DNA of 62,690 nt from IMG/VR virus record IMGVR_UViG_3300032883_000564, positions 1-62,690 of that record. One strand, written 5' to 3'. The position numbers and the translations under genes were made by a program. The notes under the pieces are model-generated. The model was not told the origin of the DNA, did no database searches, and was given only the letters and a program-made list of their open reading frames with translations. The DNA comes from a virus (Duplodnaviria > Caudoviricetes). Positions 1,366-56,615 of this stretch are shown one piece after another (the stretch's first letter is position 1; each line of letters starts with the position of its first letter).

Positions 1366-1794
1366 CTAAGCCGGGAGCGGGCCCCCGAAGCGCTGCCGCA
1401 GCAGGCAGGCGTAGTACCTGATCATCGTCGGCTCGTCGACGTCGAAGTCGCTGAACGACGGTACAAAAGGCTCTGTCTCCGAAGACAGGATCGCCGCGAT
1501 GCCTTCCATGAACTCGGACTTGTCCGGCCAGTCTGTGACGATGGACTCAAGAAGTGCGAACAGCTTTCCCGGGTGTGCGCGCATGAACGTCTCTAGAGCC
1601 GCCGCTAGCCCGTCGAAGCACAGATTGACTCCGATGCCGGCGTCGAAGAGCGCCTTCGCTGCGCGGCGGAGGCAGGTGCTGCGATTGTACGGGTCAAACT
1701 TAGCACCGCTACGAGCCAGCGACTCGCGAACGGCATTCTCAGGACGCGTACCGTACTCGTTATCAAGATCGAGCAGCGACTTTACGTGCTTCAT
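1366..1794 (-). CDS. Hypothetical protein, coupled to the tailspike gene
   Basis: ATGA overlap with the tailspike stop; no motif recognised. Confidence 0.65.
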   Translation of the reverse strand: MKHVKSLLDLDNEYGTRPENAVRESLARSGAKFDPYNRSTCLRRAAKALFDAGIGVNLCFDGLAAALETFMRAHPGKLFALLESIVTDWPDKSEFMEGIAAILSSETEPFVPSFSDFDVDEPTMIRYYACLLRQRFGGPLPA

Positions 1795-3980
1795 TCGAGG
1801 TACTCCGCCCAGGTGACCTCCGCTCCAATGAAGTGGGCCGCAGCGGCACAGGTGTCGGTACCTTGTGTTCCGTCTCTGCGCACGTCGATCCTCAGCAGGT
1901 TCACTTGATCGAGAGAAGGAGCTACGGCAGACACAGCGGCCCAGATCTTCAAGAGACTGGCGGCGCTGCCCGAAGCTATTGTTGACTGTACTGTCGTTCC
2001 GGCAGCTATTACGTCGCCGCCGGCGACGATCAGCCTATAGTCGACGCTCCAGTACACGTTTCCGGCGGTCGCATCAGGCATAGCCCAGTGCACGTTGATG
2101 GCGATGTAGCCAACGCAGGTAGACGGAAGGACCAGAGTGCCGATACAGTGACCGTTATCCGCCTTAGCCATCACGCGAGTTGATAGCATGTCGTAGCCGC
2201 CGCCGAGCGAGCCGGAAGCTGCTCCGACGACCGCCTTGAACTTCTCGGCAGGAAGCCAAGCGGTCTTCACCAGACCGGTGTTTGCGGTCTTCGGGTTGTT
2301 GCCCAAACGCACCTTGCGACCGGTGCCGGTGTTGTAGTCCATGAACTTCTGGGCAGCAGCAACACCCGAGAAATCGCAGCCGACTACCGAATGCCGGGTG
2401 TTGTAGACGCCAGCCGTCACGGTAACTCCGTACGTGCCAGTACTAACCTCGACTTGACAACCGACCATTGACCACCGATCGCACTGCCCGTCGATCGTCA
2501 ACGCGTAGAGCCCGCCGCCGACGTCACAGTACCAGCTGCAGTTGGTGAAGCTTATGAGGCGCAGGTCGGTCAGCGCGGTGCTGGTTCCCGTGTGCTCGAT
2601 AAGCGAACGCCTGGAGAACTTGACGCCCTTAAACGCAAGCTCGTTCACTTGGGGTGCGTTGTCCCCAGTAGCGGTATTCACCTTGACGTGCAAGGCATCT
2701 CCGGGGTCGCCGTAGATCGTGGTATCAGTGAACCAGACCTTGCTGACAACATTTCCGTTGGATGCACTAGCGTCGATATCAACCGCGTAGTGGACGGCGA
2801 TTTCTATGGCACAGGACTGGATGCGAACGTGGGTAACATACTGGTACCCGGTCGCTGGAGGCCTGATCAACACGCAGGCTTGGTGGAAGTCGATGAACTC
2901 GATGGCCGTGAAGCGCGCACCATCTATCGCAGCGAGGTACAGACCCGCGTAGCCGCAGGTCGTGAACTCTGTCCCGTCGCTCCTCATTTGGGTCTGAACG
3001 GTGCCCTGGGAGAAGTAGTATCCCCAACCGCCGGCGTCCTGACTGATGTAAATGCCGGCAGCATCGGTGTTCGAGGAGATCGAGACCATATCGAAGGCGG
3101 TGCACGAGATCCACCGCGCCAAGCCGGTTATTGACAGGCATCGGAAGTGGCGGTGGGTCTCCTCGGTGTAGCCGTCCCACCAAACGTCTCGGAAGAAGCA
3201 CTTCTTGTTGCCTACTAGCTTGACTGTCGCGCCGGCTGTCTTGTCGACGCCGTCGACTTGGAAGCGCAGGTCCTGAACACCAATGCCGAAAGCGCCAGGA
3301 TCGAACACAAGGCCGTCTTGAGTCGCGTTCGTGAGCACGTAGACGGAGTTGCGGCCGGCACCCACGGAGACGGTGTTGGCATAGCAGGTGACGGAGGCAG
3401 TCGTCTTGTACCTGCCGATCGGATAGAGGACGATGCCGCCGCCGAAGGCGTTGGCCGCCGTGTAGGCTGCCTGGATCGCCGTCGTGTCGTCGGTTGTGCC
3501 ATCGCCGACGGCGCCGTAGTCCTTGACGTTGAACGTCGACGGGTTCCAGGGGCTGATGACCATGCGCTTATCGACGATCTGGTTGGCGTCGATGGCAGTG
3601 TCGCCCGCGGGGACGTAGACAGAAGCGAGGACAGCCGAGCTGGCAGGGATGGCCGGGAACACGGGGTTGGATGCCGCGGTGCCCTTCACCGCCGACTTGG
3701 TGCCGGCGGCGTTGACAACAATCAGGTCGAATCGCGCACTGGCCTCCGCGCTCAGGATCGTGACGTCACCAGCCGCGACCGCGACGGTGGTCCCGCCGAT
3801 CAGGACCGTGCCAACGGCCACCGCGACGAACATGGAGGCAGGGGCCTTAGCAGAAACAGCGCAACCGGAGAGGACTCCGGTGCGCTGAAAGGACAACGCC
3901 AGGATGTCGAAGTCTACCGCATCGGGCTCGGCCTGGCCAGGGAACGCCGCCGTCCCATAGTTCGGTATCGCGAAGGCCAT
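1791..3980 (-). CDS. Tailspike / receptor-binding protein with pectate-lyase-like parallel beta-helix
   Basis: FNVKDYGAVGDGTTDDTTAIQAA cap motif followed by beta-helix-type repeats; N-terminal virion-attachment-like region. Confidence 0.88.
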   Translation of the reverse strand: MAFAIPNYGTAAFPGQAEPDAVDFDILALSFQRTGVLSGCAVSAKAPASMFVAVAVGTVLIGGTTVAVAAGDVTILSAEASARFDLIVVNAAGTKSAVKGTAASNPVFPAIPASSAVLASVYVPAGDTAIDANQIVDKRMVISPWNPSTFNVKDYGAVGDGTTDDTTAIQAAYTAANAFGGGIVLYPIGRYKTTASVTCYANTVSVGAGRNSVYVLTNATQDGLVFDPGAFGIGVQDLRFQVDGVDKTAGATVKLVGNKKCFFRDVWWDGYTEETHRHFRCLSITGLARWISCTAFDMVSISSNTDAAGIYISQDAGGWGYYFSQGTVQTQMRSDGTEFTTCGYAGLYLAAIDGARFTAIEFIDFHQACVLIRPPATGYQYVTHVRIQSCAIEIAVHYAVDIDASASNGNVVSKVWFTDTTIYGDPGDALHVKVNTATGDNAPQVNELAFKGVKFSRRSLIEHTGTSTALTDLRLISFTNCSWYCDVGGGLYALTIDGQCDRWSMVGCQVEVSTGTYGVTVTAGVYNTRHSVVGCDFSGVAAAQKFMDYNTGTGRKVRLGNNPKTANTGLVKTAWLPAEKFKAVVGAASGSLGGGYDMLSTRVMAKADNGHCIGTLVLPSTCVGYIAINVHWAMPDATAGNVYWSVDYRLIVAGGDVIAAGTTVQSTIASGSAASLLKIWAAVSAVAPSLDQVNLLRIDVRRDGTQGTDTCAAAAHFIGAEVTWAEYLE

Positions 3981-52397: not shown

Positions 52398-52587
52398 ACG
52401 CCGCCAACCTCCTGCTCGCCCGATCCACGACCACCGCTAGCTCTCCACCCGCGAGAGCCACGTTCACTCTCACCTCGGCCAACTGCCCACAGCGGCAGCC
52501 CAGCCGTACCTTCACCATTGGCCCCGCCTCCTCCAGGTCCGGCACGTCCAGCCACAACTGCGGATGGACTGGATGCGCCAGCCGCAA

Positions 52588-52887
52588 CTAGCCCTCCTCG
52601 GGAGCCTTGATGTTCACCTTCGTCCGCGGCTTGGTCTCGAAGCTCACACTCCGGGACTCCACGGGCTTGACCTCGATGACGAAGCGGCCGCAACGAAGGC
52701 TCGTCGGCTCCTCGTAGCCCATCTTCAGGATGTCGCCCTTCACACTCTCATCGAGGTCGCGGTAGGCCTTCGACACGGCTCCCTTCTCCGCCTTGGCGCT
52801 CTCACGCCTCTCCAGCCGCTGCTCCAGGTCGGCGTCCTCCAGGACCTTCTCGTCGAAGCTCCCCTGTGCCTTTGCCTTAACCGGCAT
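52588..52887 (-). CDS. Small coiled-coil/beta phage protein
   Basis: Co-oriented; GGGG RBS; charged helix followed by beta strands. Confidence 0.6.
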   Translation of the reverse strand: MPVKAKAQGSFDEKVLEDADLEQRLERRESAKAEKGAVSKAYRDLDESVKGDILKMGYEEPTSLRCGRFVIEVKPVESRSVSFETKPRTKVNIKAPEEG

Positions 52888-53686
52888 TCGTGCCCCCTTT
52901 CTTCAGTCTCACGTCCTTGCCTGTGCAGGCCACCACTCCTCGCCCGAACCGGCTGAGTATCCGGGGGTCCAGCCGGTCCGGATCCACGTTGCTCGTCACG
53001 ATAGTCGGAAGAGACGCGCCGTAGCGGGCGTCCAGCATCAGCCACAGCCGCTCACCCGCCCACTCCGTCGCCTTCTCGGTGCCGAGATCGTCAAGCACGA
53101 GCAGGCAGCGGCCCGTCATGAACGGGGCCATCAGATCCTCTATGGCGCCGACAACCCTTTCCTCCTCCGGGGTCCGCCTGTCCGCCTCATAGGCGTGCCG
53201 CCAGTAGTCCAGGAGATGGGGTACGGCACGGAACATGGCGCCGGGGTGCACCGTCTCTTTCATCGCCGCCACAGCCAGGTGCGTCTTTCCTGTGCCACAC
53301 TCCCCAATTAGGAGCGCCCCCCAGAGCCTGCCGGCCGCCACGGCCTTCGCCGCCCTGAGCGCGCGCTCCATACCCGGGTTCAGCGATAGGTCGAAGCTGG
53401 CGAAGGTGCAGACGTGAAAGCGTGGCGGGACCTGCTGGCGCCTGAGCCGCTGCTCTTCGGACTCGTCCAGGATGCACTGGCAGGGCAGGGCCTTACCGAA
53501 GTCAGGGTGGCCGAGGGGGACGCCAGCCCGGACGTAGCCGGCGTCGCCGCATAGCGGACAAGCCGGATCATCCTGAACCGGGGCACACCCGCTCCCCAAC
53601 GAGTCTTCGGGCGAACTCTCCCGGCCCTTCTCGATGATCTCGGCCAGCTTCCTCATCCCGCCTCGTGGCCCGCCTGCCAGCGTCAT
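52877..53686 (-). CDS. DnaC/IstB-like AAA+ helicase loader
   Basis: CPLC..GY..PCQC; GECGTGKTHLA; LVLDDLGTE; TIVTSN; RILSR. Confidence 0.9.
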   Translation of the reverse strand: MTLAGGPRGGMRKLAEIIEKGRESSPEDSLGSGCAPVQDDPACPLCGDAGYVRAGVPLGHPDFGKALPCQCILDESEEQRLRRQQVPPRFHVCTFASFDLSLNPGMERALRAAKAVAAGRLWGALLIGECGTGKTHLAVAAMKETVHPGAMFRAVPHLLDYWRHAYEADRRTPEEERVVGAIEDLMAPFMTGRCLLVLDDLGTEKATEWAGERLWLMLDARYGASLPTIVTSNVDPDRLDPRILSRFGRGVVACTGKDVRLKKGGTNAG

Positions 53687-55449
53687 GCCGCGCATTGCTT
53701 GATCCGTCTTCCGATCCACTCGATCACGTTCACCGTCACGGCGTCTCCGAGGGCGGCGTACCGCCTGCCATCGGGGCACCGTGAGCATGGGTCATTGAAG
53801 GGGGGATCGTTGTGGGTATGAACCCACTCATCAGGAAAAGCCTGAAGTCTGGAACACTCGACTGGGGTTAGTCTTCTAACAGAATAAGGGGCGTGTTCTG
53901 ATTGCGCTTGAAGGCCAGAGGATGACCCCACTTCTTGAAGCGCAGATAGTGCTTGTTGCAGTAACCGAGCCCCTTCTGGGGTTTTCCACAGATCACACAA
54001 GGGATGATGATAAGGTGTTCGTGAACGTGGCAACTGCGGCATATGCGCTCTAGGTTGCTCAGGGCTTGATTCGCATGATTCCCGTCCTTGTGGTGTACAT
54101 CCTTTGCGTTCAACGCGCCGCAGCGGCTGCATGGCCCCGGCGGTATCAGTTTTCGGGCGTGATAGTGAGGCGTTGATTGACCGTTCGCTCGGCTCACCCT
54201 CGCATCGAACGCCTGACTCATACACTGACGGTTGCAATACTTCCGCCGTCCGAAATGGAGCAAGGTCTCCAAGTCGCCGTCGCGCTCCCTCTTGCGAACC
54301 AGCAGCATCCCGCAGAAGGCGCAATACTTGATCGGGGTCGGCTTTCGTGGCATCGGCATATGCTTCTAGCATATGCCTCATACCTTCTACTGTCAAGGGT
54401 TCCCATCCTCCGTCGGGGTCAGGCGGCGCACAGATAAAGGTTTCGGATTCGGCATCGATTCTTCGGTTTGGGCCTGGGTGGGCATCGAGGGCAAGGGCGA
54501 TGAGGTTGTCGGCTCCGTCACCTCTCGGCCCTGAGTACCCGTGGTGCCCATCGCTGGCTTCAAGGGGAGCGGCGACTCCGTGTTGATGGCCCCGTTGGAG
54601 CGAGTACATTGGCCCCTCTCGGTATCCCCGTCCGACCTCTGGGCCACCGGATTGCTTGCCGCTGATGTCTTCGAGGGCGATGCAGGTTGTGCCGGTGTGT
54701 TCGTCAACGCCACGAGGGCTGCTTCTAAGTGCGTGGGCAACGCTCTCCCCCGCCTTTCCGCCCGCCGGAGTATCCCCGCCGCCGCCCTCGGTGAAAGCGA
54801 GTATTTCTGCGGCGCGGCCAGTTGGAGAATGTCCTTGAGAGAAGGGTGGGAACAGGGCGAGGACAAACACCCTACGTCTTCGCTGAGGAACCCAGTGCTG
54901 GGAGTCGATAATCCGCCATGCAAGGTCCACTGCCCCGCATTCGGCCAGCGAATTGAGAACCGTCCCGAAGTCTCGACCACTAGCTGCGCTGAGGAGACCG
55001 GGGACATTCTCGAATAGAGCGACGGTTGGAAACCGACCATTGGAAGCGACCCTCATCTCACGAATGATCCGAATGAACTCAAAGAACAGGCCAGAACGAG
55101 CACCGCCTATGCCTGCCCGCTTGCCGGCGACTGAGAGGTCTTGGCAGGGGAAGCCGCCGCAGATGAGATCAACAGACATTGCCTCTCGCCACCCCAGCGG
55201 CCCTCGCCCCTGAGCGGATAGGCCAAGCCCTCCTGCCATTCCAGGTTCGCCCCGTTCTCCCTCCCTCGCTGCATCAGGGCCAAAGGTTCGCACGTCTCCC
55301 CATCGGGGCACGTCGGGCCAGTGTCGGGCAAGGACTTGTCTTCGCCAGTCATCTATCTCCACCTGCCACTTGCACTCCCAGCCCGCCCGCTCCAGCCCCA
55401 GGTCGAAGCCGCCGATGCCTGAGAAGAGCGAGCCGAAGGTCACGCCCAC
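53683..55449 (-). CDS. DNA (cytosine-5) methyltransferase with overprinted genes
   Basis: SLFSGIGG, GGFPCQD, ENVPG, PQRRRRVF, VRRLTPVECSRLQAFPD, RYAALGDAV. Confidence 0.92.
   Translation of the reverse strand: MGVTFGSLFSGIGGFDLGLERAGWECKWQVEIDDWRRQVLARHWPDVPRWGDVRTFGPDAAREGERGEPGMAGGLGLSAQGRGPLGWREAMSVDLICGGFPCQDLSVAGKRAGIGGARSGLFFEFIRIIREMRVASNGRFPTVALFENVPGLLSAASGRDFGTVLNSLAECGAVDLAWRIIDSQHWVPQRRRRVFVLALFPPFSQGHSPTGRAAEILAFTEGGGGDTPAGGKAGESVAHALRSSPRGVDEHTGTTCIALEDISGKQSGGPEVGRGYREGPMYSLQRGHQHGVAAPLEASDGHHGYSGPRGDGADNLIALALDAHPGPNRRIDAESETFICAPPDPDGGWEPLTVEGMRHMLEAYADATKADPDQVLRLLRDAAGSQEGARRRLGDLAPFRTAEVLQPSVYESGVRCEGEPSERSINASLSRPKTDTAGAMQPLRRVERKGCTPQGRESCESSPEQPRAHMPQLPRSRTPYHHPLCDLWKTPEGARLLQQALSALQEVGSSSGLQAQSEHAPYSVRRLTPVECSRLQAFPDEWVHTHNDPPFNDPCSRCPDGRRYAALGDAVTVNVIEWIGRRIKQCAA
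53868..54359 (-). CDS. HNH endonuclease nested in the methyltransferase gene, different frame
   Basis: CAFC, RKYCNRQC, VHHKDGNHANQALSNLERICRSCH, GYCNKHY. Confidence 0.88.
   Translation of the reverse strand: MPMPRKPTPIKYCAFCGMLLVRKRERDGDLETLLHFGRRKYCNRQCMSQAFDARVSRANGQSTPHYHARKLIPPGPCSRCGALNAKDVHHKDGNHANQALSNLERICRSCHVHEHLIIIPCVICGKPQKGLGYCNKHYLRFKKWGHPLAFKRNQNTPLILLED
54355..54396 (-). promoter_or_regulatory. Internal promoter and 10-bp hairpin over the HNH start codon
   Basis: TTGACA-N17-TATGCT; GGCATATGCT-N3-AGCATATGCC at 54355-54377. Confidence 0.75.
54393..55040 (-). CDS. Alternate-frame polypeptide in the methyltransferase gene (beta-subunit-like)
   Basis: SLKDIL..PQKYSLSPRAAAGILRRAERRG; ends with VRRLTPTE. 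Confidence 0.6.
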   Translation of the reverse strand: MVGFQPSLYSRMSPVSSAQLVVETSGRFSIRWPNAGQWTLHGGLSTPSTGFLSEDVGCLSSPCSHPSLKDILQLAAPQKYSLSPRAAAGILRRAERRGRALPTHLEAALVALTNTPAQPASPSKTSAASNPVAQRSDGDTERGQCTRSNGAINTESPLPLKPAMGTTGTQGREVTEPTTSSPLPSMPTQAQTEESMPNPKPLSVRRLTPTEDGNP

Positions 55450-55452
55450 ATC

Positions 55453-56229
55453 TCAGCCCCACATCTCCTCGCGCCGCTCAACGAATCGCGTCACGGCCTC
55501 GCCGCTCGCCACGCGCTGGCCACCCTCCCGCCTTTGCTTGCTGCCTTGCAACACCTTCTCCATGTAGTCGGCGGGGCCGGCTGCCGCATGGCCCGCCGCG
55601 GCCATCAAGGCGTCGATCACGTTCTGGCCGTGGCCGTAGCGTTTGACGAGTCCTGCCGCCCGACCTCCATTCAGCGGCTCGGCGAACAGCAGATGACTGG
55701 CATCGACAAGGGCGGCGATCTGCTCGTTTCGTTTGTCTGAGGCGAGGAAGCGGTGGCGGCAGGACTGTAGGGTCAAGGCGGGTTGTGTCATCGGGTCCAC
55801 CTCCGGGGGCGGCAGATCGCCGTGAGGCGATCTGAAACTGTTGGTACTTCTATGGATCTTCCCCCCGACGTTTTGTTGGGACCCCCTGGGCGCTACGTGC
55901 CGCGACCCGCCAACAGAGCGTTGGCGGGTTTGTGGGGGTTGCCGGGCCAGATCGAGCAAAGTTGGCTGCGTAGCAGCACCCATGATGTACTCATTGCTGT
56001 GGCCCTCTCGTGGGCGGACGAGGATGTAGCCGCCGCGCTCTAGAAAGCGGATGAGCTTCCGGACAGTCTCATCGTGTAGGCCCGTTTCAGTCGCAAGTGT
56101 GGCCCGACTGGGCCATGCGGTTCGGTCGCCGTTGCAATGGCTGGCCAGCGTCAAGAGCACCAAGCGGGCGTTCGGCCGCAAGCCCTGCTGCTCCCTCGCC
56201 CAGCGAATGGGGTGGGTGCCGTGTGACAT
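55453..56229 (-). CDS. Replication initiator-like protein with N-terminal wHTH
   Basis: ARLVLLTLA, AWPSRATLATETGL..TVRKLIRFLERGGYI, SNEY. Confidence 0.82.
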   Translation of the reverse strand: MSHGTHPIRWAREQQGLRPNARLVLLTLASHCNGDRTAWPSRATLATETGLHDETVRKLIRFLERGGYILVRPREGHSNEYIMGAATQPTLLDLARQPPQTRQRSVGGSRHVAPRGSQQNVGGKIHRSTNSFRSPHGDLPPPEVDPMTQPALTLQSCRHRFLASDKRNEQIAALVDASHLLFAEPLNGGRAAGLVKRYGHGQNVIDALMAAAGHAAAGPADYMEKVLQGSKQRREGGQRVASGEAVTRFVERREEMWG

Positions 56230-56234
56230 CTGGC

Positions 56235-56615
56235 CTATCTCCCCTCACCAGTAGGCGCCGGGCCCGCAAAGGCTATGAACTTCTCCAGGTCGGTATCCTT
56301 CTCCGGCAAGTCCCAGCACTGTGCATAGTTCAAGTTCTCCCAGCCGATGAGCTGGTAGTAGGTCTTGCTGTCCTCACGGCGCAGGGCCAGGAGCCGGGCC
56401 AGCACGTTAACTGCGTACTTCATGAGGCCCCGCATCTCTGACTGGGTGATGCGGGAGTAGCCGGGGTCCTGGCTGCAAGTAGGGCAGGGCTGGCCAGCGT
56501 GGAGGTTCTCTAGCGGGCCGTTACGAAAGGCAACGGCGACGAGCGCCTTGGCCTCGACGGCATCTAGGGTGTTGAACACAGGATGGATTGAGGAGGACGG
56601 GGGCTCCTCGGCCAT
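56235..56615 (-). CDS. Hypothetical protein with CPTC motif
   Basis: AFRNGPLENLHAG.PCPTC; AAAGGA RBS. Confidence 0.65.
   Translation of the reverse strand: MAEEPPSSSIHPVFNTLDAVEAKALVAVAFRNGPLENLHAGQPCPTCSQDPGYSRITQSEMRGLMKYAVNVLARLLALRREDSKTYYQLIGWENLNYAQCWDLPEKDTDLEKFIAFAGPAPTGEGR

Follow-up and report, generated by a model that had tools for sequence, protein, structure and literature searches.

The motifs of C5 cytosine methyltransferases are named I to X in the standard nomenclature, which is used here for a methyltransferase gene of a phage contig that contains, in another frame, a complete HNH endonuclease open reading frame (ORF). The contig is the IMG/VR virus record IMGVR_UViG_3300032883_000564 (62,690 bases, estimated completeness 77%), called the window where the whole stretch is meant, and the gene lies on the minus strand. 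We read the locus as a two-frame C5 methyltransferase invaded by a read-through HNH cassette which replaced the motif IX it cut, and give this reading a probability of about three in four.

Described systems resemble the locus in different parts. The ShiLan domain is a 202-residue insert in mycobacteriophage DNA methylases which brings no stop into the methylase frame and hides, in another frame, a 195-residue HNH endonuclease with a TAA stop that is part of the terminal TAAC (Arsenault, Gosselin and Gogarten 2025, PMC11855218; earlier work by Gosselin et al. 2023, PMC9957025). The 2025 paper reports no intron or intein signs, a patchy distribution suggestive of homing, and residues at the start of the insert resembling those after the site (PMC11855218). 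The repository of these papers lists further out-of-frame HNH cases (PMC11855218, PMC9957025). For the host enzyme the relevant system is M.EcoHK31I, whose beta subunit is encoded inside the gene of alpha in another frame; alpha has motifs I to VIII, motif X and the target recognition domain (TRD), beta has motif IX, and the enzyme works as two polypeptides (PMC2836561, PMC3404938). M.AquI, too, is a C5 methyltransferase of two polypeptides, the fold tolerating division (PMC3404938).

The features of the locus are the following, with frame A denoting the methyltransferase frame and frame B the frame +1 to it:

53683 to 55449, minus strand: C5 cytosine methyltransferase ORF of frame A, 588 codons, GTG start, Pfam PF00145
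55408 to 55425, minus strand: motif I of the methyltransferase ORF in frame A, FSGIGG
55141 to 55149, minus strand: motif IV of the same ORF, PCQ
55003 to 55011, minus strand: motif VI of the same ORF, ENV
54393 to 55040, minus strand: nested beta-like ORF in frame B, 215 codons, which reads in order a shadow of motifs VI to VIII, the B-peptide, a linker rich in Pro, Ser and Thr, VRRLTPTE, DGNP and a stop; it ends in SVRRLTPTEDGNP, then the stop
54871 to 54885, minus strand: motif VIII of the methyltransferase ORF in frame A, QRRRR
54714 to 54842, minus strand: B-peptide core in frame B, SLKDILQLAAPQKYSLSPRAAAGILRRAERRGRALPTHLEAAL, conserved in relatives
54408 to 54431, minus strand: remnant of what would be the recipient's own motif IX, VRRLTPTE, in frame B, cut after the Glu codon
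53857 to 54407, minus strand: inserted cassette of 551 nt, read in frame A as about 175 residues, GWEPLTVEG...SEHAPYS, then VRRLTPVE
54368 to 54396, minus strand: sigma-70-like site, TTGACA-17 nt-TATGCT, ending 9 nt before the HNH ATG
53868 to 54359, minus strand: HNH endonuclease ORF in frame B, 163 codons, ATG start, phrog_1271
53857 to 53880 onward, minus strand: new in-frame motif IX of frame A, VRRLTPVE, at the end of the cassette
53794 to 53856, minus strand: putatively donor-derived 3' flank, CSRLQAFPDEWVHTHNDPPFN, which completes motif IX in frame A
53731 to 53748, minus strand: motif X of the methyltransferase ORF in frame A, GDAVTV

Frame A matches PF00145 in two stretches (E 1.3e-48, 166.6 bits for a cut-off of 22) and contains motifs I, IV, VI, VIII, IX and X, motif IX being in frame only as the downstream copy. 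An earlier note on this DNA, made from the sequence alone, had reported a main frame of 588 codons (53683-55449) open straight through the HNH gene and two copies, VRRLTPTE and VRRLTPVE, in different frames; both observations hold, since the VRRLTP stretches lie 551 nt (2 modulo 3) apart. Its phrase of coding in three frames has to be amended: the 215-codon ORF and the HNH ORF share one frame, +1 to frame A, with four stops between them (stop-Q-stop-KV-stop-GIC-stop-KHM), so that the locus has three ORFs in two frames. GC content is 0.65 for the window and goes down to 0.49-0.61 over approximately 54450-53830, the region of the cassette.

Like the beta gene of M.EcoHK31I, the small ORF 54393-55040 lies +1 inside the large one, and insertion-free relatives have exactly the layout given in the descriptions of that enzyme (PMC2836561, PMC3404938). 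In distinction to it, an entire motif IX lies in cis on alpha of the window and beta is left with just 8 residues of that motif (VRRLTPTE), which makes the window a derivative of the alpha/beta type and not a strict member, and beta here also carries the B-peptide. Two-chain activity was demonstrated for M.EcoHK31I in the cited work, whereas in the clade of the window alpha and beta would be expected to associate. M.AquI differs in being split end to end in the variable region, motifs I to VIII on one chain and IX and X on the other, with no nesting; the gp127/gp128 pair of mycobacteriophage Omega is split similarly.

The likeness to ShiLan as described in PMC11855218 extends to several traits. 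The insert adds no stop to the frame of a phage methylase and the HNH ORF is out of that frame; the TAA of the window stands in GAC TAA CC, comparable to the TAAC at the insert end; the window is without known intron or intein signatures; the residues that open the insert are similar to those following its site; and a patchy distribution suggests homing. On the other hand, the HNH has 163 residues in the window and 195 in ShiLan, a Shine-Dalgarno-like sequence precedes 24 of 45 copies here whereas that paper reports no ribosome binding site for ShiLan, and the host gene here is two-framed, with the element having apparently changed the frame that carries motif IX. The word 'cytosine' is absent from both papers (PMC11855218, PMC9957025). 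In tblastn searches of 50,697 phage records no mycobacteriophage was among the matches listed for the window HNH (E up to 1e-3), nor among the best 40 of 141 for the HNH of another cassette locus, L091 (E up to 1). With the C-terminal half of a mycobacteriophage C5 methyltransferase as tblastn query, the only mycobacteriophages among the best 60 of 84 matches were Omega relatives, and ShiLan was not among these 60. By these searches and the published descriptions the window HNH is not detectably of the same sequence family as that of ShiLan. With intron-encoded and free-standing HNH homing endonucleases the element shares an HNH core with flanking Cys pairs, a patchy distribution and a position at a highly conserved motif of the host gene; it differs from them in having no ribozyme match in Rfam and in a host frame which reads through the HNH gene.

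That the host was two-framed before the invasion is indicated by its insertion-free relatives. The closest proteins (P0001, P0002, P0004 and P0008, 60-66% identity) have no insert, and at the place of motif IX their frame A reads CAP.DPDG...GVPRWLDP, which the DNA of insertion-free relatives reveals to be motif IX one base off. In the related loci L157-L160 the +1 frame reads SVRRLTPTEC.RLQ.FPDGWT and is open back through the B-peptide. In this subclade the +1 ORF passes from the B-peptide through a low-complexity linker into motif IX, a stretch that is meaningless as read in frame A. A motif IX in the +1 frame together with a detectable B-peptide was found in 22 distinct loci, all 22 with a continuous +1 ORF and 19 with frame A also open from motif VIII to motif X; in at least 13 further loci frame A encodes motif IX. 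The earlier note had placed motifs IX and X of the ancestor on the alternate frame, and the alignment with insertion-free homologues bears this out for motif IX, which lies on the nested +1 ORF in 22 of 22 loci and shows codon-position selection there, but not for motif X, which was in the main frame and has stayed there.

A profile of beta matches motif IX of M.HaeIII (E 0.0017). Prediction of a complex between alpha of L160 and beta gave a score of 0.82, against 0.00 for the best control. Of 80 solved complexes 58 attain that mark, and of 110 mismatched pairs 2; as single-chain methyltransferases have already been solved, this pass may only reflect likeness to them. At least 31% of the contacts agree between runs, with a pLDDT of the partner of at least 51. 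In the predicted complex motif IX of beta lies on motifs I, VIII and X of alpha, and residues 9-17 of beta stand against residues 156-163 of alpha.

The nested ORF extends far beyond this subclade. With the 215-codon ORF of the window as query, tblastn matched 87 phage records, every match lying under a methyltransferase gene; that in Akkermansia phage Chantilly falls within a 192-codon ORF, +1 to the annotated gene. A search with the nested ORF of L027 gave 872 database proteins, about 145-227 residues long and without a Pfam domain, and tblastn gave 169 deposited phage records, including phage P1 and mycobacteriophage Omega. In P1 (AF234172.1; L291:1895-2383, plus strand) a 162-codon ORF lies +1 inside dmt (CDS 1594-3858 of the locus) and ends with the B-peptide (..YFLSSKACAGILRRGEKRRKSLPPLLQMAL); it is absent from the 21 features listed for the stretch. 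In Omega (AY129338.1; L292:1584-2888, plus strand) the C5 methyltransferase is split into gp127 (motifs I to VIII) and gp128 (motifs IX and X), and a 157-codon +1 ORF (1759-2232) carries the B-peptide. Records of Omega-related phages have two 'DNA methylase' features, and one record bears the remark 'coding region not determined'.

Among 122 loci with a match to the methyltransferase N-domain, 107 encode the translated nested ORF at +1. The B-peptide, with consensus S.LS.ILE....KY.LS.KAC.GILRRA.RRGK.LP..L..AL, is about 40 residues long and follows motif VIII; in 69 distinct loci motif VIII is one frame back from it, and in none are the two in the same frame. An apparently natural in-frame B-peptide in L029 was rejected: L029 and L014 are near-identical contigs differing by indels, with their genes broken into three ORFs. 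The break in L029 (about 1390-2830 of L029/L014, plus strand) fuses motifs I to VI in frame to the B-peptide, and these broken genes are either real pseudogenes or assembly errors.

Codon-position diversity tells which frame is held in which segment. Over motifs I to VIII (36 non-redundant loci) the third position of frame A, A3, is the most variable (0.58-0.72). Over the B-peptide, in the same 36 loci, it is A1, which is the third position of frame B (0.61-0.68, against 0.43-0.55 for A3), and the order flips back afterwards. At motif IX (18 non-redundant loci) A1 has a diversity of 0.45-0.56 and A2 and A3 only 0.08-0.18, while at motif X, in the same loci, A3 is highest again. The B-peptide is thus under purifying selection in the +1 frame, and selection alternates A-B-A-B-A along the gene. 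Frame B is open for 35-205 codons upstream of the B-peptide (median 112). Selection on the whole nested ORF was considered and dropped; its N-terminal motifs are +1 readings of motifs IV, VI and VIII, and the third positions of frame A are saturated there.

It is a tentative proposition, to which we give somewhat less than even odds, that the M.EcoHK31I layout is no one-off and that a very large family of phage C5 methyltransferases (P1 Dmt, Bcep22 and Omega-like enzymes) depends on an unannotated nested +1 gene which would supply the segment after motif VIII, and in one subclade motif IX, in trans. As the HNH cassettes carry motif IX in the conversion tract, they would then switch such enzymes between two-chain and one-chain states.

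The alternative that survives best, although we consider it unlikely, is that the B-peptide protein is real but no methyltransferase subunit, being for example an overprinted regulator or an anti-defence protein. The nested +1 ORF family matches nothing in Pfam and has only a weak match to phrog_16143, most members of the family have motif IX in frame A, which makes the enzyme look complete alone, and the basic, helix-like GILRRA.RRGK could bind nucleic acid. Such a role does not explain why the ORF of the subclade carries motif IX, which is integral to the fold, why the first half of the B-peptide resembles the in-frame segment after motif VIII of classical enzymes, or why the complex model sets the 9-17 stretch of beta against alpha.

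Less likely again is the absence of any separate beta, ribosomes shifting +1 after motif VIII and back, and doing so twice in the alpha/beta subclade, to make one chain. Two to four efficient shifts would be needed per chain, a local shift has no need of a frame B that is open for tens of codons upstream of the B-peptide (significantly so in 16 of 65 loci), and M.EcoHK31I, with the same layout, is made as two polypeptides (PMC2836561, PMC3404938). What speaks for shifting is that it would recreate the classical order VIII, L.DIL..KY.LS, TRD, IX, X, that methyltransferase gp45 of a Staphylococcus phage, described below, has an L.DILE...YYLS segment in frame, that PDB 3lx6, a weak match, has both parts in one chain, and that frame B upstream of the B-peptide is without selection of its own.

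The second part of the reading of an invaded two-frame enzyme concerns the cassette. The 163-residue product of its HNH ORF matches phrog_1271 (HNH endonuclease, E 3.1e-11), while the match to Pfam HNH (PF01844) stays below the cut-off (E 0.029, 14.9 bits against 21.4). It is 45-58% identical to the HNH ORFs of three other loci (L001, L003, L004), and among the four homologues H89, H90, N102, H111 and H115 are invariant, as are the Cys pairs 13/16, 42/46, 77/80, 107/110 and 121/124. When IMG/VR was scanned with an HNH alignment, 72 loci matched, of which 52 contain a near-full-length HNH. In 50 of these 52 the frame offset by two bases from that of the HNH is open throughout the HNH (ORFs of 177-997 codons, locus GC 0.26-0.68), and the remaining frame is so in 0 of 52.

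To obtain an expectation for this, synonymous codons were permuted 500 times within each HNH ORF of a set of 48 distinct sequences (deduplicated IMG/VR loci plus the window and a Staphylococcus phage). The methyltransferase frame is open across the HNH in 46 of the 48, where the shuffles predict 0.07 in total. Frame A of the window stays open in 0.6% of its 500 shuffles, and across 39 sequences the shuffles produce a mean of 273 frame A stops, the observed number being 0. Diversity at the three codon positions of the HNH frame is 0.37, 0.35 and 0.57, highest at the third, with a pairwise identity of 0.53; within the cassette the HNH frame is more constrained than frame A.

The deposited case is Staphylococcus phage CUB-EPI_14, in which tblastn found a 44.6% identical HNH, +1 inside the annotated 601-residue DNA-cytosine methyltransferase gp45. 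The gp45 frame is open through the HNH, its domain there aligns with the frame A insert of the window, and the HNH is unannotated. An in-frame domain of about 190 residues before motif IX is also present in eight frame A homologues (P0010, P0012, P0022, P0054, P0070, P0084, P0096 and P0108). A tblastn of the frame A insert domain against phage records gave matches to motif IX only, and a viral scan with the domain alignment, in which the motif IX pattern alone was used, gave two or three relevant loci.

The HNH gene ends on or near the host motif itself. In 29 of the 48 distinct sequences its stop shares bases with the R[RK]L codons of motif IX, and motif IX begins within 30 codons of the HNH stop in 45 of 48. 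In the window the HNH ends L-E-D-stop (...GAA GAC TAA CC), and the odd codons of the downstream motif IX, GTT AGA AGA CTA ACC, are due to the HNH TAA sitting inside cTA Acc. In 24 of 45 loci, where 5.6 are expected, a Shine-Dalgarno-like word precedes the first in-frame ATG by 5-17 nt, so that the HNH is probably made by internal initiation; in the window the only such word is a weak AGAAG. A promoter of its own was considered for the HNH and rejected. The sigma-70-like site of the window scores 10 of 12 and is only a weak lead, and no such site is conserved in the other cassette loci.

In four loci (L122-L125) the frame through the HNH has only 177-251 codons and stops right after VVRRLTPL, the remainder of motif IX appearing to run on in another frame. 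The locus L003/L115 (1154-3385, plus strand) has a 743-codon frame with motifs VIII, IX and X followed by a second motif I, MGSLFSGIGGFELV, at its end, which suggests that two methyltransferase genes are fused or read through.

An intron of group I or II or an intein, with RNA or protein splicing to restore a normal methyltransferase, is very improbable: phage group I introns do often carry HNH genes (PMC11855218), the 8-residue repeat at both ends of the insert could be read as an exon-like guide, and a spacing of 551 nt would connect frame B with frame A, but Rfam gave 0 matches over 52500-56500 (both strands, E up to 1) and Pfam no intein domain in frame A, a frame kept stop-free in nearly all cassettes would be needless if it were spliced out, the other cassettes lack the upstream repeat, and removal of 551 nt would set motif X out of frame with motifs I to VIII. 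No better can be said of a dead methyltransferase in which the long frame and the third ORF arose by chance in GC-rich DNA and only the HNH is real: the GC of the window, the chance opening of frame B from B-peptide to motif IX expected in 11.3 of 19 relatives, and the closed host frame of two HNH homologues, L136 with its gene in pieces among them, would suit it, but the frame of the window rarely survives shuffling, the arrangement also occurs in loci of GC 0.26-0.35, the catalytic motifs are all intact, and the codon-position signatures are those of purifying selection on each frame in its own segments.

The junctions point to where the two copies of motif IX came from. No upstream copy was seen in the other 47 distinct cassette sequences, so that VRRLTPTE is the recipient's own motif IX and not a duplication by the element; the downstream copy probably came with the 3' flank of the cassette. 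Direct sequence comparison indicates that this flank adds 31 nt relative to alpha/beta relatives. The net insertion of 551 + 31 = 582 nt is 194 codons, and frame A therefore runs into motif X with a full motif IX in phase. Here the claim of the earlier note that the insertion moved motif IX onto the main frame is borne out, the copy there being complete, while its duplication of motif IX around the HNH stands only as two copies of separate origin. Its idea of tolerance by an open, read-through frame in place of splicing agrees with the 46 open frames of 48 and with the lack of an intron match in Rfam; the overprinted homing element it proposed has already been published for another family of methylases (PMC11855218).

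An after-state is found in L162, whose frame A reads ...DGGWEPL|ASEHAPYSVRRLTPVEC..., with the junctions and flank of the window and the HNH ORF deleted in frame. Its +1 frame (L162:1886-3166, plus strand) reads VRCLRPTGDGNPWHQNTPLILLDD, the decayed old motif IX fused to the HNH tail. L162 represents a later stage, with the HNH lost and motif IX kept in cis. Five loci without an HNH (L005, L009, L011, L038 and L048) match no more of the insert domain than its final 50 or so residues, together with motif IX, and could be further remnants of this type. The same match to insert end and motif IX is seen in L014, L029 and L057; in L014 and L029 no ORF of the HNH family was found in the methyltransferase region 1300-2830.

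The distribution of the cassette is patchy, and the closest methyltransferase relatives of the window are without it. Identity between the window HNH and certain others is 58-67%, with only 37-46% between the catalytic domains of the respective host genes; double coding would slow the divergence of the HNH, and this figure is to be taken with caution as a measure of mobility. Over 347 pairs, the HNHs are more alike than their hosts by an identity difference above 0.15 in 132, the reverse being seen in 7 pairs.

A sequence of events can be proposed which would account for these observations. The ancestral gene would have had motifs I to VIII, the TRD and motif X in frame A, with beta nested at +1 and carrying the B-peptide and motif IX. 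A homing cassette, with its HNH ORF in the +1 frame, stop-free in frame A and with a stop overlapping the first codons of motif IX, would have landed after the VRRLTPTE of beta's motif IX, the HNH presumably cleaving empty alleles. Gene conversion from the donor may then have brought the 3' flank, and with it a complete motif IX in phase with motif X. Alpha would so have gained 194 codons, for the most part a disordered read-through linker followed by motif IX in cis, and with them all ten motifs, while beta would have been cut down to the B-peptide and 8 residues of motif IX. The HNH would be made by internal initiation, and the invaded enzyme would be active.

Several observations weigh against this reading. 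The N-terminal two thirds of the 215-codon ORF are without frame-B selection in the family, and upstream of the B-peptide the results for an open frame B are mixed (p<0.05 in 16 of 65 loci, median p 0.14). From B-peptide to motif IX frame B is open in 19 of 19 loci against 11.3 expected, a moderate excess over chance in GC-rich, related sequences. No RNA run was listed as containing the stretch, and the DNA runs that turned up have only small shares of it. Inside the cassette frame A identity is 0.334, above the shuffle null of 0.264, an excess for which shared ancestry and stop avoidance can account. The methyltransferase frame is closed in 2 of the 48 HNH homologues (L136 and L132). In L136 (1-2250, plus strand) the HNH is a separate ORF between fragments of a classical methyltransferase, with motif VIII and the start of the TRD upstream and motif X downstream, and the gene in pieces means that invasion can also break the host gene. 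Motif X of the subclade has GD where GN is usual; the GDAVTV of the window follows its subclade in this. The AlphaFold model of the window protein has a mean pLDDT of 56.7 and is confident for the catalytic core only, with residues 221-358 and 382-485 below 50, and it barely addresses whether the insert is harmless.

The methyltransferase gene stands between two genes of the same strand. Upstream, 55453-56229 (minus strand) encodes a replication-type protein of the HTH_36 family (E 1e-12), whose stop lies 3 nt ahead of the methyltransferase GTG start and suggests translational coupling. Downstream, 52877-53788 (minus strand) is an ORF for a DnaC/IstB-like AAA ATPase (PF01695, E 2.7e-7); its first ATG as listed overlaps the final 105 nt of the methyltransferase gene, and the true start may be further downstream. 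Within frame A itself residues 57-93 or thereabouts (about 55170-55280, minus strand) form an extra Gly/Arg-rich stretch between motifs I and IV, common only to the window, P0002, P0028 and L162, with a pLDDT below 50 for residues 68-82.

With respect to what is published, the overprinted HNH of the window is apparently a new family, and a new site, of the kind described in 2025 (PMC11855218). Nothing on the nested +1 coding of the host enzyme, or on how the cassette remodelled it, seems to have been published: full-text searches on these topics found only the ShiLan and M.EcoHK31I papers. The published hidden-HNH cases are from mycobacteriophages; here dual coding is quantified for HNH genes of an apparently different family that lie at motif IX of C5 methyltransferases, the phages ranging in GC from 0.26 to 0.68 and including one deposited Staphylococcus phage.

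The by-product is of more interest. The third ORF of the locus led to a nested +1 coding segment on which purifying selection acts in hundreds of methyltransferase genes of phages. If its product is a subunit, these genes are incompletely annotated, recoding them for heterologous expression would silently destroy that subunit, and homing elements visibly remodel the subunit architecture of their host enzyme.

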